Numbered from the stretch's first letter, positions 4,226-25,856 are shown. The stretch: 50,917 nt of DNA from Nemertoderma westbladi (GCA_032718475.1 JAUCBJ010006738.1:1-50917), one strand, 5' to 3'. The notes: generated from the sequence alone by a model not told the origin. Program-made: numbers and translations.

Positions 4226-5875
4226 ATCTGCTACATGAGTTTATCAATATTATAATGAGTTTATATTTAGGCTAGCGGGCGTCGCTGCGTACCCCTCTCT
4301 GCCCCCGGACAGTGCAAGATCCTCAGTGCCGATGTACTGTCGTCGCTGTGTTTTCGCCAACGTAGTAGCTACACAACGACAACGATAACCGGCACAAGTC
4401 ACTCCACTGTCCGTCCCAAAGGCTTAGATTTACTTCAGGTTCTTGCTGCAGAGTTAGGGCTACTTTCACAATTGCGACTCGCTACTGTAAACACACTTTA
4501 GTAGTAACATTCACCTATAAACGCACAAATTCCACACAACTGTCACAAATTGTACACATTCGGGCCATTTGTCCGTTAGTCAAGTGCCTTCCAAAATGCC
4601 ACGTTATTATTATGTATCCTTGGATACTAGCAGTGCGCTATTTATTCCCTATGCTATTCAATGGGGCAAGCCTTCTATTGTTCTTTAACTCACTTCTAAT
4701 TCTAGCGTGGTTGTTGCCATGGTGACATTATGGAAAGCTAGCAGTAGAATTAGGGTAATTCTCATGCATACAGATCTGGGATGCTATTTAATAGTAATTC
4801 TTTAATTGTCAATATCCCCTTTATACATGATTTTATAAATTTTATCGGCTATTGACCATATGTTGGAGATTCTCGCACACTAATACACTTAATAGGGTGA
4901 ATCTCCGCTCCCATGATCTATTAATTAATGGAATTTTGGGAATGTTATAAATTGTATAAAAATGACAATTTATCAAATTCATTAAAATATGAATTTAAAT
5001 TTATTCCCGTAAATTTTATTATTTAATATTAAATGGACACAATTTTATTCCAGAGCATGTCTGGGGACTGGGATCCTTGAATCTAAGAAATTGGTCTTTT
5101 TAAGAATATCGGTAAGTGCTACGATATCTTAATAGACTAGAATTTTAAAGGATCTGAATTTGACAGACTTTATAAATATTAATAATTAATATTTAAGATG
5201 GGCACCGGTTTATTCCAGAACTTGTCTGGGGACGTTAACCACTGATTCTAGAATTTTGTCTTTCAAGTATATCGGTGGGTGCCGCGATATCTTAATCGAC
5301 TAGAATTACAGATGGTCAAAGGTTTTAACAGATTTATTTTGCGGTATACGCTACTGTTAAAGGGACATCACGCTACTATATGTATTATTTAATATACGGT
5401 ATGAGAGCAATATCGCACGAAGCAATGTCAGTGAGAAGAGGCAAGTCGTTTCCAAGGTCTACCCAGAGCTTGGTTTAGCCGAGACACGAGGATCTGAATT
5501 TTGCATTCCTAATACTCTACTTACCAATAATACTTGAATATAGTAGGAGCTTTATTGTACTTTAATAAGTACTGATATTTCATCTTACTGTAGTCACGTA
5601 TTTATAATGTAATACGGACAAGAGGAAAGGAAAGAGTAAGGAAAGAGAAAAAGAATTATTTCTCGCCGTCGCACTAAATATATAATATATAAGTAATTAA
5701 GTAATAAACACTAATATATATTGCACTAATCTACTAAATAATCGCTAAAATAACATTCTACTAAATAAAATTAAAGAAAACGATTATAATAAAATTACAT
5801 AATAATACATACATAAATATAAAATAATAAAAACAAATATAAAATAATATGGTCACACACCCACTCCAGACGCTG

Positions 5876-6720
5876 TTACGTTGGGGAGTCCCTAGATGTT
5901 TGTTGGATTAGGGAGGTGGTCGTGGGAAGAGTATCTTGCCTTCCATAGTTTCCAGACAGTTCTCGGTCTCTTTCCAGTAAACATAAATGACCAACTGGGC
6001 GATTGAGTTGTTGTGTTTCGAATACAGTTCCAGGTTTCCTCTTCGTCCTGGAATAGTGACGATAGAAACATCGCTTCAAATACACGACGGCCTTACAAAG
6101 CCGATTCCAGGATCTATAGTGGTCCATCGCTCCCGGCAGGAGAGGTGAGAGTCCCGGCGAGACGTCTGGTGTTCCAGATCTCCAGTCACTCTCTCTGATC
6201 TCCACAACAGATCGGTTCGCGGTGGGGAAGTTTAGATCCGCAGCGTCGTCCCTGGCAATGTGTAGTACAGACAGATCTATCACGGGTTTAAATAACCTTG
6301 ATTTACTCGTCCGGGTTTTAGGTTTGACTTTCTCCGCTCCCTTGGCTTGTCTAATCTCAGCCGTGGTAAGATGGGGAGGCCATTCATCTTCTTTACTTAG
6401 GAAGTCGGGTCCACCTAACCAGTCTGGAGTATCTGTCAGTTCTTGAGGAGTTGCTCCTCTGGAAGCGATGTCGGCTAGATTAATCGTCTCGGGGCAATAT
6501 CTCCATTGATCTACATTGGAGTTAATATCGTCATTATCTGAGGAGTATGGTGTTCCCTCAGTTGGGTCGTCTACCTCACTGCTCTCCGCTTCCCATTCAC
6601 TTACTTGGTATACCTTTTCTTTTGGTAACCTTTCCATGAGAGTTCTACGGGAAGGGCCAGTAAAGTACCAACCTACTCTAGTTCTTCCCGCATAGGCTTG
6701 TAGTGGTTGCGGTTGTTATA
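5876..6720 (-). pseudogene. pol: Internally deleted BEL/Pao pol remnant, copy 1
   Basis: Same as 18897..19741. Confidence 0.85.
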
Positions 6721-6722
6721 TT

Positions 6723-9700
6723 TTATTGCGGCCGTTTCTCCAATGTCTCAAGCGCCTCATGCGCATTTTGGCCGATGAGTATTTGCACTCCAGGGTAGTC
6801 TGTGTTGAATCTAGGTATCTTAAGCTGCTGGGTGAAATCGTCCTCATCCCAGTTATAAGGTTCTACTTGGCTGGTAGCGAAGTTCTTTATCGCCTCCATT
6901 TTTACTGACCTTATACTGTGTTCTCCTAGTTCATCCTGGGGGGTGGACAACGCACCTACATAATAATCTGCTATTACTGTAGATTTCCAAACCTGCATAA
7001 TTCCTGACATGTTTAACTTAGTTCGGAACTTGGGTTGTCCAGCAAAGATGTCTTCGGCTAGTTCTTTGTCGATGAATGTTCCTGTGCTACCGGAGTCCAG
7101 GAGGGCGTTCACTATATAACTCCTTTCAGGTCCGTGGACCCTCAACTGCACTACGGGAAATTCTCGGATTCCTACATTGGAAGTTGGTGCTTTCCAAGAT
7201 GGTTGTCGGTCAGAAGTAGTTAGGGGGAGCTCGCTGTCGGTGTCCTTTTCATACGTAAGTGCTCGATACACTGTGGTATTTATCAGGTAACAGGATTCGT
7301 TTTCGTCGGAGAATTCGTCCGTATAGAATCCTTCCATCTCAGAACTTTGGTCAGTGTCGTTCACATCACTGAATTGCACATGTAGTTCGGACTCACTTAC
7401 CTGACTCGGGCTGTTTCGTTCGAATTCAGTGTGCAACAAGATATGATGTTTTGCGCCGCACTTCGCACACCTTGCGTCGGAGTAACAGGTTCGCCGTTGG
7501 TGTCCTTGTCTGAGGCAATTATAACACAACCGCTTATCCCACATGACTTCCCGTCTATCCTTTAATGATTTCTTTAGGAATTCATCACACGCACTTAAAC
7601 GGTGGGGCCCGTCGCACAGCACACATTTTGGTTTGATGTTACTTACCTTACTTTGGGTAACGTTATGCACACTCGTTCTTTCCTCGGGCTTTCTTACATG
7701 AATTCTCTTAGGAGACGTAGGAGGAGTTTTTCTTACCTGTTCTCTCCTGTCATTGGTTCGAGACTTGAATTTATTTACGTCCTTAGGCGCTTTGTTGTCA
7801 TAGTAAGATCTTTCAGTGTCTTTCCCGCTGTCTTCCTCTTGAGAAGCCTGGCTTTCGCCGTCGTCTGTATAACACACTGGTATTACCTTTCTCATAGAAA
7901 CGGGTTTCTCACTTACCTTATTTTCCAGTGTCTTCTCCCTGGACTGCTTTAGGAGCTGTAATTTTACCTCTCCATCTAAGAATGACATGAGATCAGCCAT
8001 GGTAGGATCTCTTTGTTGTTGTTCCATCATATATAACACTTTCTTGTCACAGCGTGTACCTACTCCACCCTTGGGCAAAGTAGATGCTAAGGCTCCTACA
8101 ACCATAGAATTCTGGTATTCATGAGACTTACCTAACCAATCTAGTTGTCTACAGATCTCCTGAATCTCGTCGGAAAACTCTATAATCCCGCTGCTAAGAA
8201 ACTTTCGGGGCGTCATTAATTTCGCATATAAATACCTAGCTATGTTAGTCCTATTACCATACCTGATGTTTAGTGTATCCCAAACTTGTCTTAATCCATC
8301 TGGATGTCCAATAAACTTTAACGCCATTAACTTGGGAGATCCTTCCAAGCACTCGATGAGGAATATAAGTTTCTCTCCGTTAGATAGCACAGAGTTCTGT
8401 ATGTTATCTTTGTAATATTCATTAAAAGGTAACCATTTCATCTCATCTCCATTGAACTTGACGATCTCTCCCACCTTTACTGCTTGACGGGCTTCGGTTC
8501 TAGCCATTTGACGCGTAAAACATTCTTGGGCCATCGTGTTATTTAATATTGAGTTATCGGTATATAAATTTCTCGGATTATGATCAGGTCTATATGGAAT
8601 ATCATTGTCAACAGGTTTATAATTACCCTTAATAGGGTTTACTATAGGAGTTTCCACTTCACTAGCAGTATAGATGCGTGTAGGCTCCACACCTTGCGTA
8701 TGAAATACTTCAGACCTAACAGATTGACACATTGCTACAGGGGGTGGTGGTATACCCCTTTGTGTATTTACTAATTTATCGCGTTCTAACACGATACTTT
8801 GCTGCACTTCTTGCAACTCTAACCTACTTTCCCTTACTGTTCCCTTAAACTGATGAACAGTCTCCTGCATCTGCCCGAGCAGGAGATTCATCCCCCGCCG
8901 CCCCTCATCCACCCACTCGACCGCTGAAGCGGGAGCTGCCAACATAGTAGCGGGCAGATGAGGGACAACGGGCGACAAATCATTGATATTTCGCTCGGAG
9001 TCCAGGACAGGAACTATCTCAGGGGTTGTTCTGTGGGGCACAGGTAGTTTAGTGCTGTGCAAAGGGAATTTAGAGGTAGGTTCTGGGAGTACAGGTGTCT
9101 CTATCACTGAAGGGGTGGCTTCGAGAACAGGCCTAATTATTTCAGGGTCATCTACTATAGTAGGGAGTCTTTCTATTTTAATTATTTGGTCTGTGGGTTC
9201 TGTACTACCTAAGTCTGTGTTAGTTAGTTGCCTTCTAACAGCTGGGGGCAAATCAGGCAATTTCTGACGGTGGGACATTCTTCTACGTCTGCTTAGACGA
9301 GATCTATTTCCTCCGCCTTCAGGATCGGTGGTATCGCCTTCATCAGAGGATGTAAATCCCTGTCGTTTGGGAGTAGATTGTCTCATCATCTGCATTTGAC
9401 TAGCTGTTAACTGTTTATTGAAGTTGTCTTGCCTCTCTTGAAGATTTTCCAACTCTAGTTGGGTTGTCTCTTCAGATGCCCTCCGTTCTGCTTCTGCCAC
9501 TGCCGCTTTTCTTTCTGCTTCTGCTGCTTTTCTTTCCGCTTCTGCCGCTGCCACTGCCGCTTTTCTTTCCACTTCGGCCGCTTTTCTTTCCGCTTCTGCC
9601 TCTGCCGCTGCTGCTGTCTTTCTGTCTTCTATACGTTTTTTCTTTACTTGTTCTTCTTGAGCCTTAGCGATGCGGATGCTTTCATCAAATTTAGCTTGGT

Positions 9701-9818
9701 TCGCAGCCAACATTTCCGCATCTATTGCGTCCAGCACAAACTTGGCTCCTTCACTATTAGGACGAAGTCCATCCAGCCTTCTCCTCAACTCTTCATCCCC
9801 TACAAATCGTTGATAGTC
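6723..9818 (-). pseudogene. gag: 5'-truncated BEL/Pao Gag-protease, copy 1
   Basis: Matches the C-terminal ~1020 aa of 19744..23817. The N-terminal ~330 codons and the promoter LTR are missing. Confidence 0.9.
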
Positions 9819-10387: not shown

Positions 10388-10515
10388 TACTAAACATTAC
10401 ACATCACGTGTGGCGGGCATTTTGTTAAAATTCCAAACAATCACACCTGGACTACGCTGGGGGGGGGGGCTCTTCCCCCACACCTACCGTGGGAAATTCC
10501 TGGCTACGCGGCTGA

Positions 10516-11070
10516 TCCCTAGTTATTATTATTATAAAGATCGTCAGCCTGCGTTTAAGAAATAAATTTAAATACAAAACAGGACGAGCACAACGAGACT
10601 TATAATGAAGACGAGTACTGCGTTGACTATTATTATTATATAAACCACCTGGCTTCACATTGAACGCATCCCTAGTTATTATTATCATAAAGATCGTCAG
10701 CCTGCGTTTAAGAAATATATTTAAATACAAAACAGGACGAACGCAACGAGGCTTATAATGAAGACGAGTACTGCGTTTATTATATTCCTATAAACCACAT
10801 GGCTTTGCATATTGAACGTGCGATTGGAAATAAGTTCGTGCTACCCTTCCGCCCCGTGGGTGGTAGATGTCGCGGTTATGTAATGGTGGGTGGGAAGGGT
10901 GGGGGGGGGGGGTGCAGATTAAAAGGTCTGAACACGTACTGTCCCTCTTTCTTTGATTGATTGGCGGTGTGGTTAAATTTCTCAAATACTGATTTTGTGA
11001 TACAGTCCCTCAATTTTAATTTGTATCTCATAACTGGGCCTCGTGCTGCGCGAAGGCCCCACGTACGTGT
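10516..11070. repeat. Dispersed repeat containing a ~153 bp tandem duplication; homologous to 27692-28290
   Basis: ATAAAGATCGTCAG..AAAACAGGACGA..TAATGAAGACGAGTACTGCGT occurs twice here and again near 27695-27790. The poly-G plus TGCAGATTAAAAGG..ATAACTGrGCCTCGT.CTGCGCGA block recurs near 27870 and 28085. Confidence 0.8.
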
Positions 11071-11340
11071 TGGTCTGTTGTTCTGTTTATCTGTTGTTCT
11101 GTCGATCTGTTGTGTCCAATTTTAAACGTTAATAACTCAGCCAAATGTTCATGAAATTTAACCAAACTTGCTACACATGTAGTCTAGCAAAAGTTTAGAA
11201 ATTTTCCAAGTTGAATTTTCGCGTGGCCTTCGAGAAGCAAAGATAATAGCAGTTAATTAGCTATTAATTAAGTTGATTAGGGTAAAAACATCAATTTCAA
11301 CCTGCCTCTTTAAAGGATATTAATTATTTTCTAGTATAAG
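11031..11340. mobile_element. Possible non-autonomous Helentron/DINE-1-like or Crypton-like repeat
   Basis: Short hairpin GGGCCTCG..CGAAGGCCC, then a TCTGTTGT microsatellite, then AATAACTC..ATGAAATTTAACCAAACTTG. This layout is typical of such repeats, but the family is not established. Confidence 0.35.
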
Positions 11341-11715
11341 ATTTAAATAATTATACTTAAAAAAGTTATACAGCTGTAATCCCCATACAACATTCCATTA
11401 TAGTTTTTAATTAGTTCAAGTGATTTACTTTAATAAATGTGTCTTTAATTGATCTAAACGTAATTAAAGCGGCACAATCATTGAGTACAAATTTAATCCT
11501 GCCCATTATTGGTCAACATAGTCTCTGCGGGGGTGTAGAGCTGCTAGCTGGCTGGGAGATGTTTGTGTAGCCTTGCCAGAGGGGAATTGTACTGTAATAG
11601 GCAGCCAGTAGTATTGCTATAGCAACCCAGACATAACACCAACCACACACAGCACTGCCAGTATTTCAATTCCTGTTGCCTCTACTATAAATGTTCTATT
11701 ATTTACTATCTCAGG

Positions 11716-12914
11716 TGTTCGCGCTTTCAGACCTTTAGCAGTTTAACCTGCCAAATTTAGATGTCTTCTAGATTATAAATCGACTTTAGCATATGACGAG
11801 TATTTGATACACTACATTAGCCGAAGCCAGTCTATGCGCGACCATTCACCAGCTGGATATACCCGGGAGACTGGATTCGGAAGCTTTGACCTTATTGCGG
11901 TGTAGGCCTACTGTATTATTCGACTGATCGTTAATATATAATTTCTGACAAATATTATTCACTTTCGGGAAATATCAACAGTTCCTTTAGGACGTGGCGC
12001 TCTAAATATGTAAACAGAGTTATGACTTACACTAGACACAACGGGATGGCTATGGATTCACGTATAAAGCGCATTCTTTAGGAGATGCTTTGTTATCAGT
12101 CACAATCATGCACACTACCGCACAATGCTGCACACCGATCTGCCGACCTTCACTAATTTTAGTCACATATAAAGAGAACAACAACCGACACATGTAGTGC
12201 CTATGAAATAGCATTAGATTCACTCCAAAACCACTTTAATGTAAGTCGCAATTGCTATATGTAACCGGTCTCTTACCTTCAGTATATCAAGAAGATAGGG
12301 GGTTTTATGATTATTTATCGATATTATCCAAATATAATAATATTCCATCAACTGATATAATTAATAACCGACAGTAGATAGCAGTAAAAATGCGGTGTTT
12401 GTAGATGACAATATGTTTTGGTTTGAGTTGACATGTAGTGTGGTTTGATTTGATTTGATAATGGTTATACGTTTCTATGACCAAAGCACACTAATGTTTT
12501 GCTAAAGTCTGAAACTTCCACAGAAGTACAGAAGAATCCTAAGCCGGTGTTCAGGGCTTAGAAATATACACACACACTGACTGAATTGCATGAGTTTCTG
12601 TATACAATCTCCAACACAGAGTGAAAACCGCTCTGATTGGTCGACCGAACAAAGAACGAACAAAGAACAAAGAAAAAGTTACACGTGGACACAGCTGATA
12701 GATGTCGTCATCGGAGTTCCGGTGTTTAGAGTATTTGGCTTATTGCGACATAAAATTGCTAGTTATGTCCGCTAAAGTACACATACAGAAGAAATGGCTT
12801 TTTATGTCCACTAAAACACCGGTACAGTAAGGAAACGGCTTTTTATGTCCGTTAAAACAACTACAGAGTACTTTGCGGGGAAAATAACCAGCTAATTCCG
12901 CAAAAGCCTTTACA
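11716..12914 (-). repeat. 3' LTR
   Basis: TGTTCGCGCTTTCAG...GCCTTTACA. About 11 substitutions against the other LTR, counted by eye. Confidence 0.97.
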
Positions 12915-12923
12915 CCGCTCCCA
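12915..12923 (-). other. Short polypurine-tract-like sequence
   Basis: Minus strand reads TGGGAGCGG immediately before the TGTAAAGG start of the 3' LTR. Confidence 0.5.
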
Positions 12924-12992
12924 GAAAATGGGATTTAATTCTATAAAATATAAAAAATCACAGTTTCTAAAATATAAAAATACTCGAAACAG

Positions 12993-14198
12993 TTAGTCCT
13001 TCTTACGCGGACGGCATTTACGCAGTTTTTTGAGGCTAGCAAGAATCCTTTTCTCTTTGGGGCGAGCCACTTTACTAGGAGGGCTATAACTCCTGGGTGA
13101 AGGGTGCAATACAATTGCATCAGAAGGTTTAGGATTACGATCGGTGTATCTGCCGGTCAAGGTACCTGGTTGATCGATATCAACTTCAGTGGAGCGAGGT
13201 CTAACGGCCTTTAGGGCGCGTCTTAGGACAGCAGCTCCTACTGGTCCCTGACAAGTCATCTGGACAATAGCGGTAGGTGGACCGTGAGTGGTGAGAAACT
13301 TCCTCGGTTTAATGGTTCTTTCCAGCTCGCGTTCTCTGGCTCGATATTCGTAGGGCCGTCGAGATACTTCCTGTAACTCAGGGTGCGAGTTGATAAATAA
13401 ATCGCTATACTCAGGGTCTTGACGGATGAAATTGATCAAATGGTATGAATTAATATCATTAGGATTGACGTTCCTGAGATATTTTCGAACAAATTTGGTG
13501 GAAATACACTCACCAACACGCTTCATTAGTTCGTAACTCGGTGTGCGTGTTTTTTGTTCAACAGACGCGAATAGATAAGGATGGAACGCGTAAACTCCCT
13601 CGTAGGCGCGTCCAGGGTAATAGCGATGGCGTGACTCACAATGCAAATCCGCGTTCGCTTCCCAAGCTCGGATGTAGCGCAGGGTAATCATCTCATCTAC
13701 GCTTTCCAAATCGCGGTTAAAAGGGCAATTAAAACTGGCATGTCCTTTAAGTTGACAGTGGTGGCATTGAGTCATAAATTGGGGGCAGACTGCAAAAATG
13801 TGCGAGTTATTAAGTCTGCAATACGCACAATAGATCTCCATCATCGGTTGTTCATGGAAATAGGAGCAGGGTACGTCTGAGTCCATAGGGGTGAAATGAT
13901 CTCTCGATGCGCATAATCGGCAACGTTTTCGAGAAACATAGTTGGCGTGTCGATAATCGTATGCGGTGAGACATTGTGGACCTTGATACCACTCCAAGAC
14001 GTAATCGTTATCGCTGCTCCGGGGCGCTGTAGGCTGGATCGCTTCAGACTCTAAGCATATTGGTTCGTCTTCCAATTGCATAGCTGAGATAGGTGTGGCT
14101 GTCTCCGCAAGCGAACCCACTGTCTGAACTTCCACGACAGAATACCCGTGGGTATTCGAGGTCTTTGTATAACAGATGAATGTAAGTCCTGTATACAA
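12993..14198 (-). CDS. Accessory ORF segment with three CCHC-type zinc knuckles and a basic C-terminus
   Basis: 401 aa: CRLCASRDH..C, CAYCRLNNSHIFAVC, CHHCQLKGHASFNC (CX2CX4HX4C), ending KKLRKCRPRKKD. The annotated start is TTG, so this is probably a frameshifted continuation of the upstream ORF. Confidence 0.7.
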   Translation of the reverse strand: MYTGLTFICYTKTSNTHGYSVVEVQTVGSLAETATPISAMQLEDEPICLESEAIQPTAPRSSDNDYVLEWYQGPQCLTAYDYRHANYVSRKRCRLCASRDHFTPMDSDVPCSYFHEQPMMEIYCAYCRLNNSHIFAVCPQFMTQCHHCQLKGHASFNCPFNRDLESVDEMITLRYIRAWEANADLHCESRHRYYPGRAYEGVYAFHPYLFASVEQKTRTPSYELMKRVGECISTKFVRKYLRNVNPNDINSYHLINFIRQDPEYSDLFINSHPELQEVSRRPYEYRARERELERTIKPRKFLTTHGPPTAIVQMTCQGPVGAAVLRRALKAVRPRSTEVDIDQPGTLTGRYTDRNPKPSDAIVLHPSPRSYSPPSKVARPKEKRILASLKKLRKCRPRKKD

Positions 14199-14380
14199 AC
14201 GTCCTTGAAAAGGGCGAATCCCGCGCTATCTAACTTCTCCGCAGCTGAGTCTCTTAGGCTGAGTTTGGTCAGAGCGCGGTCCTTGAACTGACTATCAACG
14301 TTACGGAACGGAGTCAGAAAGCGCCTGAAACATTCGAAGCGGATGAATTTATTGTGTTCATCTAGCTTGGCGAGTTTAGT

Positions 14381-16369
14381 TCAAAGTATTAAGGGATGGG
14401 CGTGTATGGTACGACTGCACACATCGGCTAGCCAACCGGCAAGTATGGCGTTTTCAAAGATCATGTATATAGCTAAGGAGGGACGAAGTGGAACACTCAT
14501 AAAGCTGTACACGGCGCCAGGTGCGGTCAATGGTCCGTCAAAGTATAATCGAGAATAATGATCTCCATATACTTGTTGGTAGTTGATAGGATTTCCAACC
14601 TTGAAATTCCATCCGTATTCTTGAAAGGCAAGATGTCCGATGGAGGTTCGTTGTACTTTAGTGATGCCGCTAGGTGTATTTGCATACATAGTGCGGAAGA
14701 AACCTCGGCCTTCTGCCCAGGGAGCAATCAGCTGAGTATCGACGAAAGTGTATGGAATGTTTTCCATGTTCCGAAAGTCGTTTTGGATATCTCCATAAAC
14801 AGCTGAGCCGATTTTAAGGATTCTTTCGTTAAACAACATCTCGAGCACGGGCTGGGGTAACATCGATCCATCGATACCCATGGCCGGTTTGCGCTCGGTG
14901 TCGGTGACGTAACGCTGCGCGAGTTCGAATTGTCCATGTCGGAGTTTCTTTTGTGTCTCGGTAAGGGTCTCAAAAGAATAATCAATCACATCGGAACACG
15001 CTCGAGTAAATACGTGGGTAGAACCAGCTAGTCCTCGTATGTGTATCATTCCCGTAGTTCCCAGTTCTCCAATCGGAACGCTACCTTCGTTATCGTAAGT
15101 GACAACTCCATACATCTCGATAACGTTAAGAGTCTCATTCCACTCTTTAGTGGCATTTTCTAGAGTCATTCCCACTGGATGCCACAAGGTAGCGCATTCG
15201 CTAGCATTAGGTAGATCTCTATACTTTAAATATTGCGTATTATATGTCTCTACATCTCCATATCTTTGTATTCTTTCCTCCTTGAATAACACGTCGAGAT
15301 TCCAGTGTACTAATCGAGTTTTGATGAATCCATCAAGATTATACGGAGGTATTGTCTCTTTCTCTATCCTGGAAACATTATAGGGTTTTCGAAATGAGTT
15401 TACTTTAACTAACTGATCAAGATGTTTCTGCAGTTGTTCGAGTTCGACAAGATCGAGAGGATTTATTAGTGGTAGAAACCTCAGACTATGTGTAGGATCT
15501 TCCGGTTTTACCATGTAATATTGCGTTAGATTGACGTAATAAGGGTGATCTTTGATCCCATAAAACGAGTTCGGTAAAGGTCTAGCGCGTATGTTAACAT
15601 CGTGTACCATACGACAGACAAGATCCGCTCTATTGTCCGGAGGTTCAACGAGTATACCATCGACACGAGCGGCCTCGATTGGCAGACGTTGTAACATGGG
15701 AGTGTCAGCGATAAGATCTCGAGATCTTAGGTTGATATCAACCGGTTGAGGCTGTGCCGTGGCGAAGAGTTTGTCTCCGAAATGGGGAACCATCGAAGGA
15801 TGGATGATGGTTTTAGAATAGAGATCCGTCATCAGAATTTGAGCTTCTGGCTGGGCTAAAGCTGCTTCTTCTCTCTCATCCATTTCTATGTGTTTCTCCT
15901 CGAGCTGATTTTCCTCCGCTTGTTGTTGTAAACGCTCGTCTAGGAACTCTTGTAAAGAATAGGTTCGTCCACGTTCGATGTCTTCCTCGAGATCCTGGAT
16001 TTCTCTATTGAACTGGGGTAAAGCTAATTCTTTCACCGCTTGGACTTGTTGCTGCAATTTGCGTTTCTCTAAACAATCGTAAGCTCCTTTTCCGATTTTC
16101 TGCCGAATAGCGTCTAATGCGTTTCGTACAACGCTCTCTTTGACTTCAGTAACGGGTTGTATCGGGGTTAAGCCTGAATGGTTGTACGGGTTAAACGGCG
16201 ATATTAGATGACCGCGTCCTAATCCGGCTAGGTAGGGTTGGCGAATATCTAGTGAGCCCACTACCGGAGTGCCACCGATCAACTGTTCGGGTAACACAAG
16301 ATCTTTAAATAGTGAGTACAGTTCAGGGGGATCCGTTATACTATTAGGATCAAGCGTTTGAGGTCTCAC
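14381..16369 (-). CDS. Accessory ORF segment with DEDDy 3'-5' exonuclease domain (WRN-exo/RNase D/Mut-7/EXD-like)
   Basis: ExoI-like VVTYDNEG (~15084-15107), ExoII-like LPQPVLEMLFNERILKIGSAVYGD (~14787-14858), FVDTQLIA, SIGHLAFQEYGWNFK and ExoIII-like PLRPSLAIYMIFE (~14454-14492), in the canonical order. An acidic/Gln-rich coiled-coil-like stretch lies N-terminal. The annotated start is a GTG directly after an in-frame TAA. Confidence 0.78.
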   Translation of the reverse strand: MRPQTLDPNSITDPPELYSLFKDLVLPEQLIGGTPVVGSLDIRQPYLAGLGRGHLISPFNPYNHSGLTPIQPVTEVKESVVRNALDAIRQKIGKGAYDCLEKRKLQQQVQAVKELALPQFNREIQDLEEDIERGRTYSLQEFLDERLQQQAEENQLEEKHIEMDEREEAALAQPEAQILMTDLYSKTIIHPSMVPHFGDKLFATAQPQPVDINLRSRDLIADTPMLQRLPIEAARVDGILVEPPDNRADLVCRMVHDVNIRARPLPNSFYGIKDHPYYVNLTQYYMVKPEDPTHSLRFLPLINPLDLVELEQLQKHLDQLVKVNSFRKPYNVSRIEKETIPPYNLDGFIKTRLVHWNLDVLFKEERIQRYGDVETYNTQYLKYRDLPNASECATLWHPVGMTLENATKEWNETLNVIEMYGVVTYDNEGSVPIGELGTTGMIHIRGLAGSTHVFTRACSDVIDYSFETLTETQKKLRHGQFELAQRYVTDTERKPAMGIDGSMLPQPVLEMLFNERILKIGSAVYGDIQNDFRNMENIPYTFVDTQLIAPWAEGRGFFRTMYANTPSGITKVQRTSIGHLAFQEYGWNFKVGNPINYQQVYGDHYSRLYFDGPLTAPGAVYSFMSVPLRPSLAIYMIFENAILAGWLADVCSRTIHAHPLIL

Positions 16370-16429
16370 TTAGGAATGAGGAGGTCTGACCGAGTATTCC
16401 GGAACTCTGATCATGGGTTTATTCAAGGA

Positions 16430-17246
16430 TCATTTTAGTCGAGCGAGCGTAGGTGATACGTCGAACAGGTTTCGCTCGAAACTCCCATAAGTATATCGTG
16501 TAAAACTGTGTTTAGCGCAACGTCTCCGCGGGTGTTTATGTCTTTCCGTTTGCTGATTGGGTCTAGGGCATTCGTCGCAGTAATACCAAAGACCCACGTC
16601 CTGCAGGGGAAACGCGGGTGATCGTTCTCCAGTTTTACAATATTCCTCCATCTGTTCGAAGCTATCTGGGACGACAGGTAGCGGTCGATCGGCGGTAAGA
16701 TACATCATAGTGAAATAGAGTCGTTTGAGTTCTATCATAGGGTCATGATGTATACCTTGAGGATATCGAGTTTCTAGATTTTTTTTGACTGGCAATATTG
16801 AGATATGTTTCTCTCAGGAATTCCAGATAATCGTTGAAGTCGCTGCGTTTATCCGGCTCTTCAACGTCTTCCCTTTCGAGTCTGTTTCGAATAGAATTCT
16901 CGTGTTCTATTCTCGGTTTATCGTTCCGACTCTGCTGGGTATGATATTTAAATAAAACCATTTCCCTTTCGGTGTCTACATCGTCCGTATCGTGTAAATC
17001 GATAGGATGGCCAGTAGTTAAGAAGTCCATATACGTACCATTACGATGCGTATAGCGAGTGGTGAATTTTCTATAGTCCAATTCACGCGTAAGTTGCTCC
17101 TGGGACATTGGCGGTTCGATATAACGACCATCGTCCTCCGTAGTAGTTGGACCAGCGTCGCCGCGTATCAAGCTATCGACAAACGCTTGTAAAGTTAGAG
17201 TATATCGCTCCCTGATACCAAGATCATCTTCTATCAACTCAGTCAT
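16430..17246 (-). pseudogene. N-terminal part of the accessory ORF (ATG at 17246; 167 aa and 121 aa pieces joined by a 1 nt frameshift)
   Basis: The ORFs overlap across an A8 run (T8 on plus, near 16779-16786). The 121 aa piece is in the same frame as the 662 aa ORF and has a Cys/His cluster CDEC..HKH..CAKH. Confidence 0.6.
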
Positions 17247-18896
17247 ATCTGCTACATGAGTTTATCAATATTATAATGAGTTTATATTTAGGCTAGCGGG
17301 CGTCGCTGCGTACCCCTCTCTGCCCCCGGACAGTGCAAGATCCTCAGTGCCGATGTACTGTCGTCGCTGTGTTTTCGCCAACGTAGTAGCTACACAACGA
17401 CAACGATAACCGGCACAAGTCACTCCACTGTCCGTCCCAAAGGCTTAGATTTACTTCAGGTTCTTGCTGCAGAGTTAGGGCTACTTTCACAATTGCGACT
17501 CGCTACTGTAAACACACTTTAGTAGTAACATTCACCTATAAACGCACAAATTCCACACAACTGTCACAAATTGTACACATTCGGGCCATTTGTCCGTTAG
17601 TCAAGTGCCTTCCAAAATGCCACGTTATTATTATGTATCCTTGGATACTAGCAGTGCGCTATTTATTCCCTATGCTATTCAATGGGGCAAGCCTTCTATT
17701 GTTCTTTAACTCACTTCTAATTCTAGCGTGGTTGTTGCCATGGTGACATTATGGAAAGCTAGCAGTAGAATTAGGGTAATTCTCATGCATACAGATCTGG
17801 GATGCTATTTAATAGTAATTCTTTAATTGTCAATATCCCCTTTATACATGATTTTATAAATTTTATCGGCTATTGACCATATGTTGGAGATTCTCGCACA
17901 CTAATACACTTAATAGGGTGAATCTCCGCTCCCATGATCTATTAATTAATGGAATTTTGGGAATGTTATAAATTGTATAAAAATGACAATTTATCAAATT
18001 CATTAAAATATGAATTTAAATTTATTCCCGTAAATTTTATTATTTAATATTAAATGGACACAATTTTATTCCAGAGCATGTCTGGGGACTGGGATCCTTG
18101 AATCTAAGAAATTGGTCTTTTTAAGAATATCGGTAAGTGCTACGATATCTTAATAGACTAGAATTTTAAAGGATCTGAATTTGACAGACTTTATAAATAT
18201 TAATAATTAATATTTAAGATGGGCACCGGTTTATTCCAGAACTTGTCTGGGGACGTTAACCACTGATTCTAGAATTTTGTCTTTCAAGTATATCGGTGGG
18301 TGCCGCGATATCTTAATCGACTAGAATTACAGATGGTCAAAGGTTTTAACAGATTTATTTTGCGGTATACGCTACTGTTAAAGGGACATCACGCTACTAT
18401 ATGTATTATTTAATATACGGTATGAGAGCAATATCGCACGAAGCAATGTCAGTGAGAAGAGGCAAGTCGTTTCCAAGGTCTACCCAGAGCTTGGTTTAGC
18501 CGAGACACGAGGATCTGAATTTTGCATTCCTAATACTCTACTTACCAATAATACTTGAATATAGTAGGAGCTTTATTGTACTTTAATAAGTACTGATATT
18601 TCATCTTACTGTAGTCACGTATTTATAATGTAATACGGACAAGAGGAAAGGAAAGAGTAAGGAAAGAGAAAAAGAATTATTTCTCGCCGTCGCACTAAAT
18701 ATATAATATATAAGTAATTAAGTAATAAACACTAATATATATTGCACTAATCTACTAAATAATCGCTAAAATAACATTCTACTAAATAAAATTAAAGAAA
18801 ACGATTATAATAAAATTACATAATAATACATACATAAATATAAAATAATAAAAACAAATATAAAATAATATGGTCACACACCCACTCCAGACGCTG

Positions 18897-19741
18897 TTAC
18901 GTTGGGGAGTCCCTAGATGTTTGTTGGATTAGGGAGGTGGTCGTGGGAAGAGTATCTTGCCTTCCATAGTTTCCAGACAGTTCTCGGTCTCTTTCCAGTA
19001 AACATAAATGACCAACTGGGCGATTGAGTTGTTGTGTTTCGAATACAGTTCCAGGTTTCCTCTTCGTCCTGGAATAGTGACGATAGAAACATCGCTTCAA
19101 ATACACGACGGCCTTACAAAGCCGATTCCAGGATCTATAGTGGTCCATCGCTCCCGGCAGGAGAGGTGAGAGTCCCGGCGAGACGTCTGGTGTTCCAGAT
19201 CTCCAGTCACTCTCTCTGATCTCCACAACAGATCGGTTCGCGGTGGGGAAGTTTAGATCCGCAGCGTCGTCCCTGGCAATGTGTAGTACAGACAGATCTA
19301 TCACGGGTTTAAATAACCTTGATTTACTCGTCCGGGTTTTAGGTTTGACTTTCTCCGCTCCCTTGGCTTGTCTAATCTCAGCCGTGGTAAGATGGGGAGG
19401 CCATTCATCTTCTTTACTTAGGAAGTCGGGTCCACCTAACCAGTCTGGAGTATCTGTCAGTTCTTGAGGAGTTGCTCCTCTGGAAGCGATGTCGGCTAGA
19501 TTAATCGTCTCGGGGCAATATCTCCATTGATCTACATTGGAGTTAATATCGTCATTATCTGAGGAGTATGGTGTTCCCTCAGTTGGGTCGTCTACCTCAC
19601 TGCTCTCCGCTTCCCATTCACTTACTTGGTATACCTTTTCTTTTGGTAACCTTTCCATGAGAGTTCTACGGGAAGGGCCAGTAAAGTACCAACCTACTCT
19701 AGTTCTTCCCGCATAGGCTTGTAGTGGTTGCGGTTGTTATA
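18897..19741 (-). pseudogene. pol: BEL/Pao pol remnant lacking RT, most of RNase H and the integrase core
   Basis: The frame extends upstream of the annotated Met as QAYAGRTRVGWYFTGP (BEL post-protease T.LGW..GP motif). It then jumps to WRYCPETINLADIASRG..WLGGPDFL..WP (end of the BEL RNase H region), continues to YRSWNRLCKAVVYLKR (pre-integrase linker), and jumps to LNRPVGHLCLL (integrase C-terminal RP..L motif). No YxDD motif or DDE core. Confidence 0.88.
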
Positions 19742-19743
19742 TT

Positions 19744-22700
19744 TTATTGCGGCCGTTTCTCCAATGTCTCAAGCGCCTCATGCGCATTTTGGCCGATGAG
19801 TATTTGCACTCCAGGGTAGTCTGTGTTGAATCTAGGTATCTTAAGCTGCTGGGTGAAATCGTCCTCATCCCAGTTATAAGGTTCTACTTGGCTGGTAGCG
19901 AAGTTCTTTATCGCCTCCATTTTTACTGACCTTATACTGTGTTCTCCTAGTTCATCCTGGGGGGTGGACAACGCACCTACATAATAATCTGCTATTACTG
20001 TAGATTTCCAAACCTGCATAATTCCTGACATGTTTAACTTAGTTCGGAACTTGGGTTGTCCAGCAAAGATGTCTTCGGCTAGTTCTTTGTCGATGAATGT
20101 TCCTGTGCTACCGGAGTCCAGGAGGGCGTTCACTATATAACTCCTTTCAGGTCCGTGGACCCTCAACTGCACTACGGGAAATTCTCGGATTCCTACATTG
20201 GAAGTTGGTGCTTTCCAAGATGGTTGTCGGTCAGAAGTAGTTAGGGGGAGCTCGCTGTCGGTGTCCTTTTCATACGTAAGTGCTCGATACACTGTGGTAT
20301 TTATCAGGTAACAGGATTCGTTTTCGTCGGAGAATTCGTCCGTATAGAATCCTTCCATCTCAGAACTTTGGTCAGTGTCGTTCACATCACTGAATTGCAC
20401 ATGTAGTTCGGACTCACTTACCTGACTCGGGCTGTTTCGTTCGAATTCAGTGTGCAACAAGATATGATGTTTTGCGCCGCACTTCGCACACCTTGCGTCG
20501 GAGTAACAGGTTCGCCGTTGGTGTCCTTGTCTGAGGCAATTATAACACAACCGCTTATCCCACATGACTTCCCGTCTATCCTTTAATGATTTCTTTAGGA
20601 ATTCATCACACGCACTTAAACGGTGGGGCCCGTCGCACAGCACACATTTTGGTTTGATGTTACTTACCTTACTTTGGGTAACGTTATGCACACTCGTTCT
20701 TTCCTCGGGCTTTCTTACATGAATTCTCTTAGGAGACGTAGGAGGAGTTTTTCTTACCTGTTCTCTCCTGTCATTGGTTCGAGACTTGAATTTATTTACG
20801 TCCTTAGGCGCTTTGTTGTCATAGTAAGATCTTTCAGTGTCTTTCCCGCTGTCTTCCTCTTGAGAAGCCTGGCTTTCGCCGTCGTCTGTATAACACACTG
20901 GTATTACCTTTCTCATAGAAACGGGTTTCTCACTTACCTTATTTTCCAGTGTCTTCTCCCTGGACTGCTTTAGGAGCTGTAATTTTACCTCTCCATCTAA
21001 GAATGACATGAGATCAGCCATGGTAGGATCTCTTTGTTGTTGTTCCATCATATATAACACTTTCTTGTCACAGCGTGTACCTACTCCACCCTTGGGCAAA
21101 GTAGATGCTAAGGCTCCTACAACCATAGAATTCTGGTATTCATGAGACTTACCTAACCAATCTAGTTGTCTACAGATCTCCTGAATCTCGTCGGAAAACT
21201 CTATAATCCCGCTGCTAAGAAACTTTCGGGGCGTCATTAATTTCGCATATAAATACCTAGCTATGTTAGTCCTATTACCATACCTGATGTTTAGTGTATC
21301 CCAAACTTGTCTTAATCCATCTGGATGTCCAATAAACTTTAACGCCATTAACTTGGGAGATCCTTCCAAGCACTCGATGAGGAATATAAGTTTCTCTCCG
21401 TTAGATAGCACAGAGTTCTGTATGTTATCTTTGTAATATTCATTAAAAGGTAACCATTTCATCTCATCTCCATTGAACTTGACGATCTCTCCCACCTTTA
21501 CTGCTTGACGGGCTTCGGTTCTAGCCATTTGACGCGTAAAACATTCTTGGGCCATCGTGTTATTTAATATTGAGTTATCGGTATATAAATTTCTCGGATT
21601 ATGATCAGGTCTATATGGAATATCATTGTCAACAGGTTTATAATTACCCTTAATAGGGTTTACTATAGGAGTTTCCACTTCACTAGCAGTATAGATGCGT
21701 GTAGGCTCCACACCTTGCGTATGAAATACTTCAGACCTAACAGATTGACACATTGCTACAGGGGGTGGTGGTATACCCCTTTGTGTATTTACTAATTTAT
21801 CGCGTTCTAACACGATACTTTGCTGCACTTCTTGCAACTCTAACCTACTTTCCCTTACTGTTCCCTTAAACTGATGAACAGTCTCCTGCATCTGCCCGAG
21901 CAGGAGATTCATCCCCCGCCGCCCCTCATCCACCCACTCGACCGCTGAAGCGGGAGCTGCCAACATAGTAGCGGGCAGATGAGGGACAACGGGCGACAAA
22001 TCATTGATATTTCGCTCGGAGTCCAGGACAGGAACTATCTCAGGGGTTGTTCTGTGGGGCACAGGTAGTTTAGTGCTGTGCAAAGGGAATTTAGAGGTAG
22101 GTTCTGGGAGTACAGGTGTCTCTATCACTGAAGGGGTGGCTTCGAGAACAGGCCTAATTATTTCAGGGTCATCTACTATAGTAGGGAGTCTTTCTATTTT
22201 AATTATTTGGTCTGTGGGTTCTGTACTACCTAAGTCTGTGTTAGTTAGTTGCCTTCTAACAGCTGGGGGCAAATCAGGCAATTTCTGACGGTGGGACATT
22301 CTTCTACGTCTGCTTAGACGAGATCTATTTCCTCCGCCTTCAGGATCGGTGGTATCGCCTTCATCAGAGGATGTAAATCCCTGTCGTTTGGGAGTAGATT
22401 GTCTCATCATCTGCATTTGACTAGCTGTTAACTGTTTATTGAAGTTGTCTTGCCTCTCTTGAAGATTTTCCAACTCTAGTTGGGTTGTCTCTTCAGATGC
22501 CCTCCGTTCTGCTTCTGCCACTGCCGCTTTTCTTTCTGCTTCTGCTGCTTTTCTTTCCGCTTCTGCCGCTGCCACTGCCGCTTTTCTTTCCACTTCGGCC
22601 GCTTTTCTTTCCGCTTCTGCCTCTGCCGCTGCTGCTGTCTTTCTGTCTTCTATACGTTTTTTCTTTACTTGTTCTTCTTGAGCCTTAGCGATGCGGATGC

Positions 22701-23817
22701 TTTCATCAAATTTAGCTTGGTTCGCAGCCAACATTTCCGCATCTATTGCGTCCAGCACAAACTTGGCTCCTTCACTATTAGGACGAAGTCCATCCAGCCT
22801 TCTCCTCAACTCTTCATCCCCTACAAATCGTTGATAGTCTGACAGATAGATGTCAATAGCGTCCCTCTCATGCGGTTTCTCTGCTGTCGCTTCACTTTCC
22901 ACTTGGGAAAATGTAGCGTCTGTTGATTCTCCATGGGTTGAGCGCTCAGCCAACTGAGATTTCCACGGGGCAGTTCCTTGAACTTTGAGACTCACCCGCT
23001 GAAACCAAGTCTTTACGGCAACTTGCAACGACGTGTCTTGTCTTCTTTTCGAAGCCTCCTCAAAGGCCGATAAGATTAGTCTGATTCTTAGAATTCTTTC
23101 TCTAACTTGATAAAGCAGTTCTCCCTGCTCTTGAGGTCCTTGGGGTTGTCGAAACAGTTGTTCCTCTAATCGCTCCATAGAGCTGAAGAATCCCTGTACG
23201 TATCCTGCTGCTGACCTCTTCCACACAGCCGGATTGCTGGTTTCTTTTGTCACTCCCATCCTGTGTATGTCTTCCCATGCAGCTTCCGATAAGTCAAACG
23301 GGAGTCCGGGTCCGGGGAAGTTCCATTGCGACTCGACAATAGACTTCAGTTCTTCCCTTGTGTATCCCGCATAACTATCCTTGGTCGATCGCTTACTTCT
23401 CGCCCAATCAATCTGGTGTTCCTCCACCGCAATCAATACCCTAGTGAGTACGGCTGCAGGAAGGATGAGAAGGGGATCCGAATAAACCGCATCTGCCATC
23501 TTAGCTCCGCGCTCGGGTGTCAGCTCTACAGTATCCGCACTACTGGAGCTGTCAGGCCTCTGAGAAATAAGTTCTCGGCTCGAGTGTTGCTGCTGTTTAA
23601 CAGCTGCTTCTTGGTCCCGCTTGACTTGAGCTCGAGTGCCTATGATAGACCTACGGTGTTGGACTAGCCTAGGATCTGATATTACTACTGGAGGGATGAT
23701 CTTTCTTACAGTAGGAGGTGAATTGAACTTCGGTCTCACACGTTCCACACTCCTGTCTGGGTCACAGATGGTTGTATCTAGGAGACTGTCTGACAGGTTT
23801 TGCTTTGTGTCAGACAT
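19744..23817 (-). CDS. gag: BEL/Pao Gag-aspartic protease polyprotein, 1357 aa
   Basis: DUF1759-type capsid region KFNGDEMKWLPF..LSNGEKLIFLIECLEG..WDTLNIRYG. Three knuckles CVLCDGPHRLSAC, CYNCLRQGHQRRTC, CAKCGAKHHILLH. Protease ALLDSGSTGTFI..ILIG. ATG start and no interruptions. Confidence 0.93.
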   Translation of the reverse strand: MSDTKQNLSDSLLDTTICDPDRSVERVRPKFNSPPTVRKIIPPVVISDPRLVQHRRSIIGTRAQVKRDQEAAVKQQQHSSRELISQRPDSSSSADTVELTPERGAKMADAVYSDPLLILPAAVLTRVLIAVEEHQIDWARSKRSTKDSYAGYTREELKSIVESQWNFPGPGLPFDLSEAAWEDIHRMGVTKETSNPAVWKRSAAGYVQGFFSSMERLEEQLFRQPQGPQEQGELLYQVRERILRIRLILSAFEEASKRRQDTSLQVAVKTWFQRVSLKVQGTAPWKSQLAERSTHGESTDATFSQVESEATAEKPHERDAIDIYLSDYQRFVGDEELRRRLDGLRPNSEGAKFVLDAIDAEMLAANQAKFDESIRIAKAQEEQVKKKRIEDRKTAAAAEAEAERKAAEVERKAAVAAAEAERKAAEAERKAAVAEAERRASEETTQLELENLQERQDNFNKQLTASQMQMMRQSTPKRQGFTSSDEGDTTDPEGGGNRSRLSRRRRMSHRQKLPDLPPAVRRQLTNTDLGSTEPTDQIIKIERLPTIVDDPEIIRPVLEATPSVIETPVLPEPTSKFPLHSTKLPVPHRTTPEIVPVLDSERNINDLSPVVPHLPATMLAAPASAVEWVDEGRRGMNLLLGQMQETVHQFKGTVRESRLELQEVQQSIVLERDKLVNTQRGIPPPPVAMCQSVRSEVFHTQGVEPTRIYTASEVETPIVNPIKGNYKPVDNDIPYRPDHNPRNLYTDNSILNNTMAQECFTRQMARTEARQAVKVGEIVKFNGDEMKWLPFNEYYKDNIQNSVLSNGEKLIFLIECLEGSPKLMALKFIGHPDGLRQVWDTLNIRYGNRTNIARYLYAKLMTPRKFLSSGIIEFSDEIQEICRQLDWLGKSHEYQNSMVVGALASTLPKGGVGTRCDKKVLYMMEQQQRDPTMADLMSFLDGEVKLQLLKQSREKTLENKVSEKPVSMRKVIPVCYTDDGESQASQEEDSGKDTERSYYDNKAPKDVNKFKSRTNDRREQVRKTPPTSPKRIHVRKPEERTSVHNVTQSKVSNIKPKCVLCDGPHRLSACDEFLKKSLKDRREVMWDKRLCYNCLRQGHQRRTCYSDARCAKCGAKHHILLHTEFERNSPSQVSESELHVQFSDVNDTDQSSEMEGFYTDEFSDENESCYLINTTVYRALTYEKDTDSELPLTTSDRQPSWKAPTSNVGIREFPVVQLRVHGPERSYIVNALLDSGSTGTFIDKELAEDIFAGQPKFRTKLNMSGIMQVWKSTVIADYYVGALSTPQDELGEHSIRSVKMEAIKNFATSQVEPYNWDEDDFTQQLKIPRFNTDYPGVQILIGQNAHEALETLEKRPQ

Positions 23818-23956
23818 GTTTGTTTGTACAGTTGAATGCCTACTGCTATATTACAGTTAAAGCAAGTCTAGTAATTCAGTATCAACTGTTAGCCTAGTAA
23901 TTAGTTACCGATACTGCTACTCAGTGTAGCGTGATATATATATATATAATATATTA

Positions 23957-24326
23957 GAATACCGGTATGCTTATAGTATATATAAGTATTATTATGGACT
24001 AGAATTAATTACAGAATACCGGTATATAATTTCAGCACAAATATATAGAAATATATAATAGGCTTATCGTGAATACCGGTATACAGCTTACACTTATAGT
24101 ATATACAAGTATAATTATAGACTAGAATTAATTACAGAATACCAGTATATAATTTCAGCACAAATATATAGAAATATATAATAGGCCTATCGCAAATACC
24201 GGTATACAGCTTACACTTATAGTATATAAGTATAATTATAGACTAGAATTAATTACAGAATACTGGTATATAATTTCAGCACAAATATATAGAAATATAT
24301 AATAGGCTTATCGTGAATACCGGTAT
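23957..24326. repeat. ~122 bp tandem repeat x3 in the element 5' leader
   Basis: AGAATTAATTACAGAATAC at ~24001, ~24124 and ~24245. Confidence 0.9.
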
Positions 24327-25279
24327 GTCAATTATTTTAGAATAATTGAATTTCTGAATTTTAGGGGTTACTTGTTTACTTTACTTTACTTGATTACCGT
24401 TATTTAAGCAGTAGTCCAACTGACATTAAGACCTAATTTATGTATGACAGGCCTACTATTTTATAAATCGGTTTGAGTTGATTTATAATATATGTGTACC
24501 CGTTTAATGGGTTTTGTCAATATTTGAAATAAATGTTATTATTTCTGGGAAAGAGTCACCGCACAGAAGCTGTACGCTCTCAGTGAAGTGCTACTTGTTG
24601 GACACTAAAACAAATAATTCTAATTTGCCTAAGTTACTTAACACTACAAATTACATACAATTCGGGGTGAGATTACAATCTCTAAACAAACACAAAAATT
24701 TAAGCGTACGAATTTTTTAGGGTAATTTTACAAGAAGTCTACAAACCAGCCTAACAAAGGGTTAGAATATCTGGTTATTACAAACAGACAGGATACTACG
24801 GTATTTGAAAATAACAAAGCAGTAGTAAATATACTGCGTTGTCCAGATAGGAAAAATACCACCGTCTGACGACTTATAGCCGTATCGCTATAAGTACTAC
24901 GTTATGTATCACGGAGTGTTCCTACCTAGAAGTTAATTACCGCGGTCTACCAGAACCAACGTGCCTATTAACCACTTTACAACACAAATATACTGCCTAC
25001 ACACTAATTACCTTCGGAAAGTATTGTACACTAAACCCTAAATTAGGTACAAGTACTTATACAACAAATAATCAGCAGTTAGAAATACTTGTACAGCTAA
25101 AGGAACCACGGTATCTGCTGGAGTGACCGGGGCACAAAATCACCAGTCTTTACCTACGCCAAGCAGCCCTGATGTAGTACCGGGGTTAAGTTAACTATAA
25201 CGGTATGTATAACAAGCACAATTACTGTAGGAATAAACTTGGGGTTGTGAATGTTGCAAATAATCGCATAAACTCTGAA

Positions 25280-25856
25280 TAATAAATATTACGCTACGCG
25301 TACAGACTACTCAAACAAAATCCAGACCAAACGCTGGCAGACTACTATCAAGCCCAAACAAACTACAGTATATGCAGACTCCGAAATGGTTAGTTAGTAT
25401 GCGTTCTAACCGAGTAGTACGACTTATTCTTTCAGGGGGATTTACCTTACAGCGCTGGAAGCCCCTACGTTCCTAACTAGTACTTTATCGGACATACACT
25501 CTACACACACCGCAATCTCTTCAGACCTAACAACAGCTAGGCAACAATCCAGCCTACAAATTATCTAAATAAGAAATATTATGCTACCCGTACAGACTAC
25601 ACAAACAAAATACAGACCAAACGCTGGCAGACTACTATCAAGCCTAAACAAACTACAGTATATGCAGACTCCGAAATGGTTAGTTAGTATGCGTTCTAAC
25701 CGAGTAGTACGACTTATTCTTTCAGGGGGATTTACCTCACAGCACTGGAAGCCCCTACGTTCCTAACTAGTACTTTATCGGACATACACTCTACACACAC
25801 CGCAATCTCTTCAGACCCAACAACAGTCAGACAACAGTCCAGCCTACAAATTATCT
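25280..25856. repeat. 290 bp tandem repeat x2 in the element 5' leader
   Basis: AyGCTAC.CGTACAGACTAC at 25291 and 25581. Both units end AGCCTACAAATTATCT. Confidence 0.9.

Follow-up and report, generated by a model that had tools for sequence, protein, structure and literature searches.

A BEL/Pao-type retrotransposon family of Nemertoderma westbladi carries a DEDDy-like exonuclease domain and zinc knuckles in the envelope position

The window analysed here is a 50,917-nucleotide stretch of Nemertoderma westbladi DNA (GCA_032718475.1 JAUCBJ010006738.1:1-50917); all coordinates are counted from its first letter. It contains a long terminal repeat (LTR) retrotransposon of BEL/Pao type in which the position usually taken by env is occupied by other cargo: a domain very probably of DEDDy exonuclease ancestry, followed by an array of zinc knuckles. 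This arrangement had been proposed in an initial annotation made from the sequence alone, and it is supported by a DUF1759 match in gag, a language-model comparison (Atlas), a purpose-built profile, ordered motif blocks and NCBIfam. The cargo is a trait of a large family. As to function, we tentatively favour, at somewhat less than an even chance, the view that this third gene of the family encodes one RNA-end-binding protein that shields the element from small-RNA silencing.

The element and its accessory region

Comparison of the window with itself revealed two 1199-bp repeats, 11716-12914 and 26137-27335, which align without gaps and differ at 11 positions (99.1% identity). On the minus strand both run from TG to CA, and CCTGA flanks their outer sides at 27336-27340 and 11715-11711. 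The matching TG...CA repeats and the CCTGA on both sides therefore define 11716-27335 (minus strand) as a single young LTR insertion of 15.6 kb, with the following parts.

26137-27335, minus strand: 5′ LTR, 1199 bp, TG...CA, from gapless comparison with the 3′ LTR
19744-23850, minus strand: gag-protease frame of 1368 codons between stops, its first ATG at 23817; contains three Cys/His knuckles besides DUF1759 and an LDSG protease motif
18897-19736, minus strand: pol remnant, 279 codons; reverse transcriptase (RT), most of RNase H and integrase are missing
16743-17261, minus strand: accessory frame 1, 172 codons, ATG at 17246; coding-like codon usage, no informative Pfam match
16430-16813, minus strand: accessory frame 2, 127 codons; shares its reading frame with the 662-codon open reading frame, with two stops between them
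14381-16369, minus strand: accessory frame 3, 662 codons; an acidic coiled-coil-like stretch (read from the sequence), then the DEDDy-like domain
14405-15157, minus strand: DEDDy-like exonuclease domain, about residues 405-655 of the 662-codon frame
15094-15092 (D426), 15088-15086 (E428), 14791-14789 (D527), 14467-14465 (Y635) and 14455-14453 (E639), minus strand: putative catalytic residues
14051-14380, minus strand: accessory frame 4, 109 codons without a Met; continues the 662-codon frame after its TGA (14381-14383)
12993-14225, minus strand: accessory frame 5, 410 codons; three knuckles and a basic tail
11716-12914, minus strand: 3′ LTR, preceded by the short purine-rich tract GGGAGCGG and followed by CCTGA

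In the gag-protease frame Pfam matched DUF1759 over its cut-off (E=1.2e-11) and gave Asp_protease_2 at E=0.036; a DUF1759 gag with three Cys/His knuckles and a protease is the BEL/Pao gag type. The pol remnant had no Pfam match, and its GWYFTGP, NLADIASRG and WLGGPDFL are presumably the BEL post-protease and RNase H-end motifs. A motif scan of the element's coding strand found neither YxDD nor an integrase-type motif, and the window copy is therefore non-autonomous.

The element agrees with the BEL/Pao pattern in its LTR (1199 bp, within the 0.2-1.2 kb range, TG...CA, with target-site duplication), in a gag that has DUF1759 and three knuckles and precedes an aspartic protease, in a short purine tract and in having a third gene in the env position. 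It departs from that pattern in its length (15.6 kb against the usual 4.2-10 kb), in a third gene that encodes no glycoprotein and in its pol: with RT and integrase deleted, the copy has neither the order RT-RNase H-integrase nor a sequence for placement by RT phylogeny. It also has no TGG-type primer-binding site directly after the 5′ LTR (26077-26136, minus strand), despite its recent insertion. The window contains no tRNA genes whose 3′ ends could be compared with an 18-nt primer-binding site, and Rfam found nothing within the element. The insertion is thus a non-autonomous BEL/Pao-type derivative, short of a complete member of Belpaoviridae, a family whose ICTV profile lists gag, pol and env-like genes only (PMC8742986).

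The third-gene region is on the gag strand, with the pol remnant (18897-19736) on one side and the 3′ LTR (11716-12914) on the other, exactly where it had first been placed. The span 12993-17246 is not a single open reading frame and is divided among five frames. Behind an AT-rich spacer (17262-18896), the 4.3-kb accessory region (12993-17261, minus strand) holds stop-free frames of 172, 127, 662, 109 and 410 codons. Chance does not account for a frame of 662 codons, since the longest free of stops among 1000 shuffles had 228. With gag and the 662-codon frame as training set, a codon-usage score favours the 172-codon frame to ~16850, then the common frame of the 127-, 662- and 109-codon segments to ~14200 and then the 410-codon frame, with two ambiguous windows near 16535-16445. 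Coding-like codon usage through all five frames in turn suggests that they were formerly one gene of ~1,400 codons starting at ATG 17246, although two genes would also fit. In the window copy three stops within this region and two switches of frame interrupt it, and the whole protein cannot be made by that copy. The 127-codon frame (16430-16813, minus strand) contains a CDEC..H..C..H cluster, a putative zinc finger that may open the accessory gene.

The three CCHC knuckles and basic tail announced behind the exonuclease are real; they stand in the 410-codon frame, however, and what separates them from the exonuclease frame is the TGA (14381-14383), the 109-codon frame and, near 14200-14160, a switch of frame. 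The knuckles have the spacings CX2CX4HX9C (13922-13866), CX2CX5HX4C (13829-13785) and CX2CX4HX4C (13766-13725), only the last being canonical, and 15 of the last 45 residues of the frame are Lys or Arg. For this part Pfam zf-CCHC_3 reached E=0.0017, under its cut-off, and the Atlas leads (CCHC, Air2-like, DUF8363) all scored below 0.9. A reading of the knuckle part as Rrp6/Air2-like has nothing to support it beyond these leads. An envelope protein was also considered and rejected: across the five frames the best 19-residue hydropathy is 1.47, in what would be the ExoIII helix described below, and with no transmembrane-like segment the third gene is therefore not an envelope.

The DEDDy-like domain

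The 662-codon frame contains, in the order claimed for it, all the motifs first quoted: D426-N-E428-G; LP..VLEML..E.ILKIG..V..D527; VD544.Q546; S576...LA....G...K590; and PL.....Y635...E639. A profile built from 57 non-redundant domains drawn from 140, nearly all bacterial EXD2-like and RNase D proteins, aligned to residues 504-549, that is, to ExoII and the following D.Q motif, with 13.0 bits (P=3.6e-6; reached by none of 2000 shuffles), while seven other frames of the window gave at most 0.3 bits (P>=0.028). Small bacterial subgroup profiles scored 10.2 bits for RNase D (0/2000 shuffles) and 2.3 bits for EXD2-like proteins (16/2000), and no score was reported for NrnC-like proteins. Seven ordered blocks summed to 53.6 against a shuffle maximum of 44.3 (0/400), a result driven by ExoII. 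Among the 18,950 NCBIfam families, RNase D TIGR01388 was found with E=0.028 for residues 498-600 (103 aa) and 0.15 for the 259-aa domain; RNase D families were the best or only match, and two of the four pieces searched had none. In the Atlas the domain scored 0.91 to the PF01612 cluster, behind two unnamed clusters (0.92 and 0.91), with 25 of 30 matches in the PF01612 set and 156 of 256 features in common.

Support for ExoII in this frame is solid as judged by these comparisons, and for ExoI (D426-N-E428-G) it appears moderate. VVTYDNE at residue 422 is the best ExoI placement across the whole frame; the combination ExoI-beta2-beta3 was equalled in 20 of 2000 shuffles within the stretch upstream of ExoII and in 49 of 400 over the whole frame, and ExoI alone in 161 of 2000. 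The D-x-E of ExoI with its two strands is present, as are the Asp of ExoII, the helix-strand before it and the D-x-x after it. The C-terminal part of the proposed domain did not stand out in the same way: the downstream helix and ExoIII were matched by 789 and 586 of 2000 shuffles, and the stretch expected to hold ExoIII contains no Y-x3-D. Its best register is Y635-x3-E639, consistent with the Glu first named as last catalytic residue, but two others compete with it, Y621-x3-S625 and the W587...D603 offered by MAFFT. Two tandem 14-residue units share the same aromatic-P-L-Y spacing, one ending at S625 and the other at E639. With ExoIII lacking statistical support and with rival registers, we consider an active enzyme somewhat doubtful; DEDDy ancestry is very probable.

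Structure prediction was one of the checks proposed at the outset. A steered AlphaFold run, with homologue rows over the N-terminal half only, gave a confident but steered core; the helix of residues 630-655, which bears Y635/E639 and was not steered, was predicted to lie across this core (predicted local distance difference test, pLDDT, ~50). The steered model matched EXD2 with Z 10.4, root-mean-square deviation (rmsd) 3.3 and 117 aligned residues, which is circular for the core, and Egalitarian entries with Z 9.5, rmsd 4.6 and 126 aligned, the structural ranks being tied within ~1 Z. Identity to solved DEDDy members in these alignments is ~5-18%. In several VIA structural alignments the Y635/E639 helix reaches as far as the ExoIII helix end in WRN, Egalitarian, Exd1 and Klenow. 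Counting back without gaps from the range ends, E639 would presumably fall on the catalytic Asp of WRN (2fbt, 2e6l) and Klenow (1d8y, 1kln); in the remaining rows the offset is as much as one helical turn. Foldseek with the steered model found nothing at E<=0.001 in PDB or BFVD; its top rows are all DEDD-family, which we do not count as independent.

Sequence searches for closer relatives found no homologue. Among PDB sequences the domain had no match and two pieces had one irrelevant match each (E 1.2-1.3); word-seeded homologue searches were empty at longer lengths (377 candidates) and at near lengths (7997 candidates); none of 45 pattern matches in metagenome contigs was confirmed, and viral contigs and phages contained no homologue. 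Against small alignments, hhalign yielded only weak matches, with probabilities of 15-30% and P values of 0.0018 and 0.00056.

Family copies and known counterparts

Six sequencing runs are listed, four of them with the stretch; they come from three studies of a single organism, no run is recorded as RNA, and runs X1 and X2 represent one sample. Contigs of the four DNA runs were aligned to 11500-27500, summed depth not being read as copy number. The runs placed 128,382, 84,369, 37,125 and 1,154 contigs, most 90-99% alike, and each covered all 30 bins. The element family is plainly large and diverse. Contigs from all four runs cover the cargo, which supports a family trait and no one-off capture, the outcome that would have emptied the original proposal.

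Pieces were then compared one by one for the 32 listed, with 176,916 more beyond the listing. Among them, the 662-codon frame is represented by 10 pieces with 327 differences in 2504 letters (13%) and no gaps, while three of the four wholly non-coding pieces are gapped (11 gap letters in 1240). Every one of the 12 indels listed, from a total of 195, lies outside the frames. Gap-free pieces in the 662-codon frame and indels confined to non-coding parts favour frame-preserving selection, with the caveat that AT-rich spacers are more indel-prone. Of 2559 variable places 40 are listed, and 23 of these, within frames, could be classed: 5 of 14 are synonymous (9 not) in the accessory frames and 5 of 9 in gag/pol. 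At the stop that ends the 127-codon frame nearly all aligned contigs differ from the window, and many depart from it at the gag-protease stop; both stops look private to the window copy.

Two contig joints, 14073-16879 and 13146/13155-15874/15883, mark derivatives without the exonuclease part. Splicing was rejected as their cause, since they were found in DNA runs and have no GT..AG ends. In run X4 depth over the bins flanking the exonuclease is several times that over the exonuclease itself. One run X2 contig joins across 11717-27395, the whole element, which suggests an empty site or a repeat target; 10515-11071 and 27682-28286 have repeat pieces in common.

A precedent in bdelloid rotifers, cited in the initial annotation, does exist. 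According to PMC5408684, Juno and Vesta LTR retrotransposons have DEDDy third genes, common also to Athena/Terminon elements, with a DEED tetrad and no assay; the reviews PMC6338049 and PMC6431247 restate this. The rotifer elements and ours have in common an altered tetrad, the absence of a transmembrane segment and the placement of a DEDDy-type domain in a third gene that lies after pol and before the 3′ LTR. Juno and Vesta have a dUTPase, an intact pol, low copy number and the tetrad DEED, with Glu as third acidic residue; the window element is BEL/Pao-type and many-copy, is represented by an RT/integrase-deleted copy and has a tetrad that is probably D-E-D-E, with Asp in third place. Our domain further differs in its long insertions, in a gene of probably ~1,400 codons and in the three knuckles that follow. 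KolobokD DNA transposons (PMC9587614) likewise carry a DnaQ-family nuclease as accessory cargo, although theirs is a DEDDh (TREX/ERI1/exuperantia-like) enzyme of a DNA transposon and ours is DEDDy-like.

The order ExoI-ExoII is that of host DEDDy proteins, K-I-G recurs in EXD2-like rows and D-T-Q in RNase D rows. The last-position Glu is shared with mouse EXD1 (PMC4712191), and the DxEG together with the 19-residue D527-Q546 spacing equals D561/E563/G564 and D621-Q640 of Egalitarian (bioRxiv 10.1101/2025.08.03.668247), the equivalence of the Gln being our assignment. Unlike host DEDDy proteins, the domain mixes features of several subfamilies, has no detected Lsm or HRDC domain and has knuckles appended.

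The main text of the BEL/Pao surveys PMC3118150 and PMC13524379 never uses the word ‘exonuclease’. We found no BEL/Pao element with a DEDD exonuclease in the literature covered; most subscription journals, Repbase reports and the supplements of PMC5408684 and PMC3118150 lie outside that coverage, and a prior mention is possible. The carrier (BEL/Pao), the domain combination and the abundance are new here; DEDDy third genes in rotifer elements were already known.

Possible roles of the third gene and other features of the window

The pocket of DEDDy proteins accepts the 3′ end of a nucleic acid, and single-stranded RNA is held by knuckle arrays that have a basic tail. In the reading that we tentatively favour, the third gene would be expressed from its own ATG (17246) behind the AT-rich spacer, D426, E428, D527 and E639 would form a pocket, and the knuckles and basic tail would hold single-stranded RNA. 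The protein would then hold or trim RNA 3′ ends and so blunt small-RNA silencing in trans; its target might, as a guess, be PIWI-interacting RNA (piRNA) precursors or slicer fragments. Glu at the fourth catalytic place may leave catalysis weak or absent, and binding alone may suffice, as in the inactive host EXD1. The window copy would have been mobilised in trans. Host relatives illustrate how a DEDD domain can work through binding alone: mouse EXD1, an inactive protein with the tetrad A-E-L-E, takes part in piRNA biogenesis as an RNA adaptor (PMC4712191), and RNA binding by Egalitarian does not depend on its catalytic residues (bioRxiv 10.1101/2025.08.03.668247).

A number of results pull the other way. 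Pfam, the first check proposed, has no match for the 662-codon frame or its pieces, phmmer found none to the window protein among 1.84 billion representatives, and the profile P-value of 3.6e-6 would be ~E=0.09 at Pfam size. The Atlas score is reached by 4-10 in 100 shuffled proteins, near the chance range, and its 156 common features are fewer than the 170 typical for true family members. To the chance-level ExoIII and its rival registers is added an unsteered single-sequence AlphaFold model with pLDDT 29.5; the fold match of the core is circular because the alignment steered the folded core. The 5 of 14 synonymous places show no selection on the protein, although these places are few and biased to changes private to the window copy. 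Exonuclease-lacking derivatives exist as DNA, and the domain is therefore not needed in cis. In rotifers the DEDDy ORF3 has no clear tie to copy number according to PMC5408684, and the counter-silencing role itself rests on analogy.

A more specific version goes further by analogy and, though worth stating, is rather improbable: a BEL/Pao lineage may have independently built a large third protein, with an EXD1/Egalitarian-like DEDDy domain and a knuckle array, that mimics host piRNA-pathway RNA adaptors, sequesters or over-trims piRNA intermediates in trans and thereby lets RT-less derivatives reach very high copy number. If true, this would be an animal retrotransposon with its own suppressor of piRNA silencing. 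Animal retrotransposons may encode counter-defence of their own against small-RNA silencing; BEL/Pao, as an unrelated second carrier whose cargo has an RNA-binding module attached and whose copies form a large pool, makes this testable and selection measurable. The finding also supports the idea that nucleases have repeatedly come to occupy the env slot.

It is conceivable, though again a minority prospect, that the protein is an active 3′-5′ exonuclease that aids replication by trimming, within the particle, the RNA of the element itself, the tRNA primer or cDNA 3′ ends, with the knuckles as a nucleocapsid-like clamp. Three acidic residues are in place and a fourth is present in the best register, RNase D is the top family by score (10.2 bits, 0/2000 shuffles), and end-processing has been proposed for the rotifer DEDDy ORF3s (PMC5408684). 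With no TGG after the 5′ LTR, the window copy gives no sign of an intact tRNA CCA end serving as primer, but this odd primer site may be decay of that copy. The Glu in place of Asp at the last position and the statistically unsupported ExoIII speak against catalysis, and gag and pol alone suffice for most BEL/Pao elements (PMC8742986).

We regard as unlikely that a captured host or foreign gene hitchhiked through the amplification of the family and is now functionless for the element, which would be ordinary gene capture. The three internal stops and two frame switches of the window copy, the synonymous places that show no excess (5/14) and the derivatives lacking the exonuclease would all suit such a passenger; one of the breaks, however, looks private to the window copy, no introns are evident, and the 13% divergence is gap-free with indels confined to non-coding parts among the listed pieces. 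Having no close host homologue among 1.84 billion representatives, the gene would moreover have had a long independent evolution.

Less likely still is an Egalitarian-like, non-catalytic RNA adaptor that replaces env and carries element RNA to the germ line or into particles. Its DxEG and D-to-Q spacing agree with Egalitarian, whose catalytic residues RNA binding can spare (bioRxiv 10.1101/2025.08.03.668247); Egalitarian is among the matches of the predicted structure (Z 9.5, rmsd 4.6, 126 aligned), and an acidic coiled-coil-like stretch precedes the domain. Those structural ranks are nevertheless steered and tied within ~1 Z, and the ExoII segment has G where Egalitarian and RNase D-type proteins have H. 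That the motifs are a chance resemblance in a frame encoding an unrelated fold is very unlikely, as three methods reach the same superfamily at the same residues with motif order kept, even though Pfam, PDB-sequence and phmmer matches are absent and the unsteered pLDDT is 29.5.

The window also contains a second, partial copy of the element.

552-9818, minus strand: partial copy, 9267 bp, 100% identical to 13573-22839, with identical broken accessory frames

This copy begins inside gag and ends inside the knuckle frame, exactly at the start of a related, diverged LTR (1-552) that starts with TGTAAA and has blocks in common over ~340 bp. It is either a recent duplicate (a very recent duplication struck by a sister element) or an assembly artefact, and gives no independent evidence. 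Within the 15.6-kb element, tandem repeats of 123, 290, 163 and 39 bp at 23970-24326, 25274-25856, 18031-18328 and 27184-27287 occupy the long 5′ leader, the spacer ahead of the accessory region and the LTR.

Elsewhere, 30680-32461 (plus strand) is an intronless 593-codon oxysterol-binding-protein frame (Pfam Oxysterol_BP, E=4e-120) whose closest solved relatives are ORP2/ORP1, possibly a retrocopy or a single-exon host gene. A 42-bp purine-rich satellite with 229 copies and a GC skew of ~+0.75 fills 37170-46747, and the long open frames there come from the repeat. At 48639-48892 a GC-rich, CCACCG-rich repeat with a 21-bp period has open frames on both strands.

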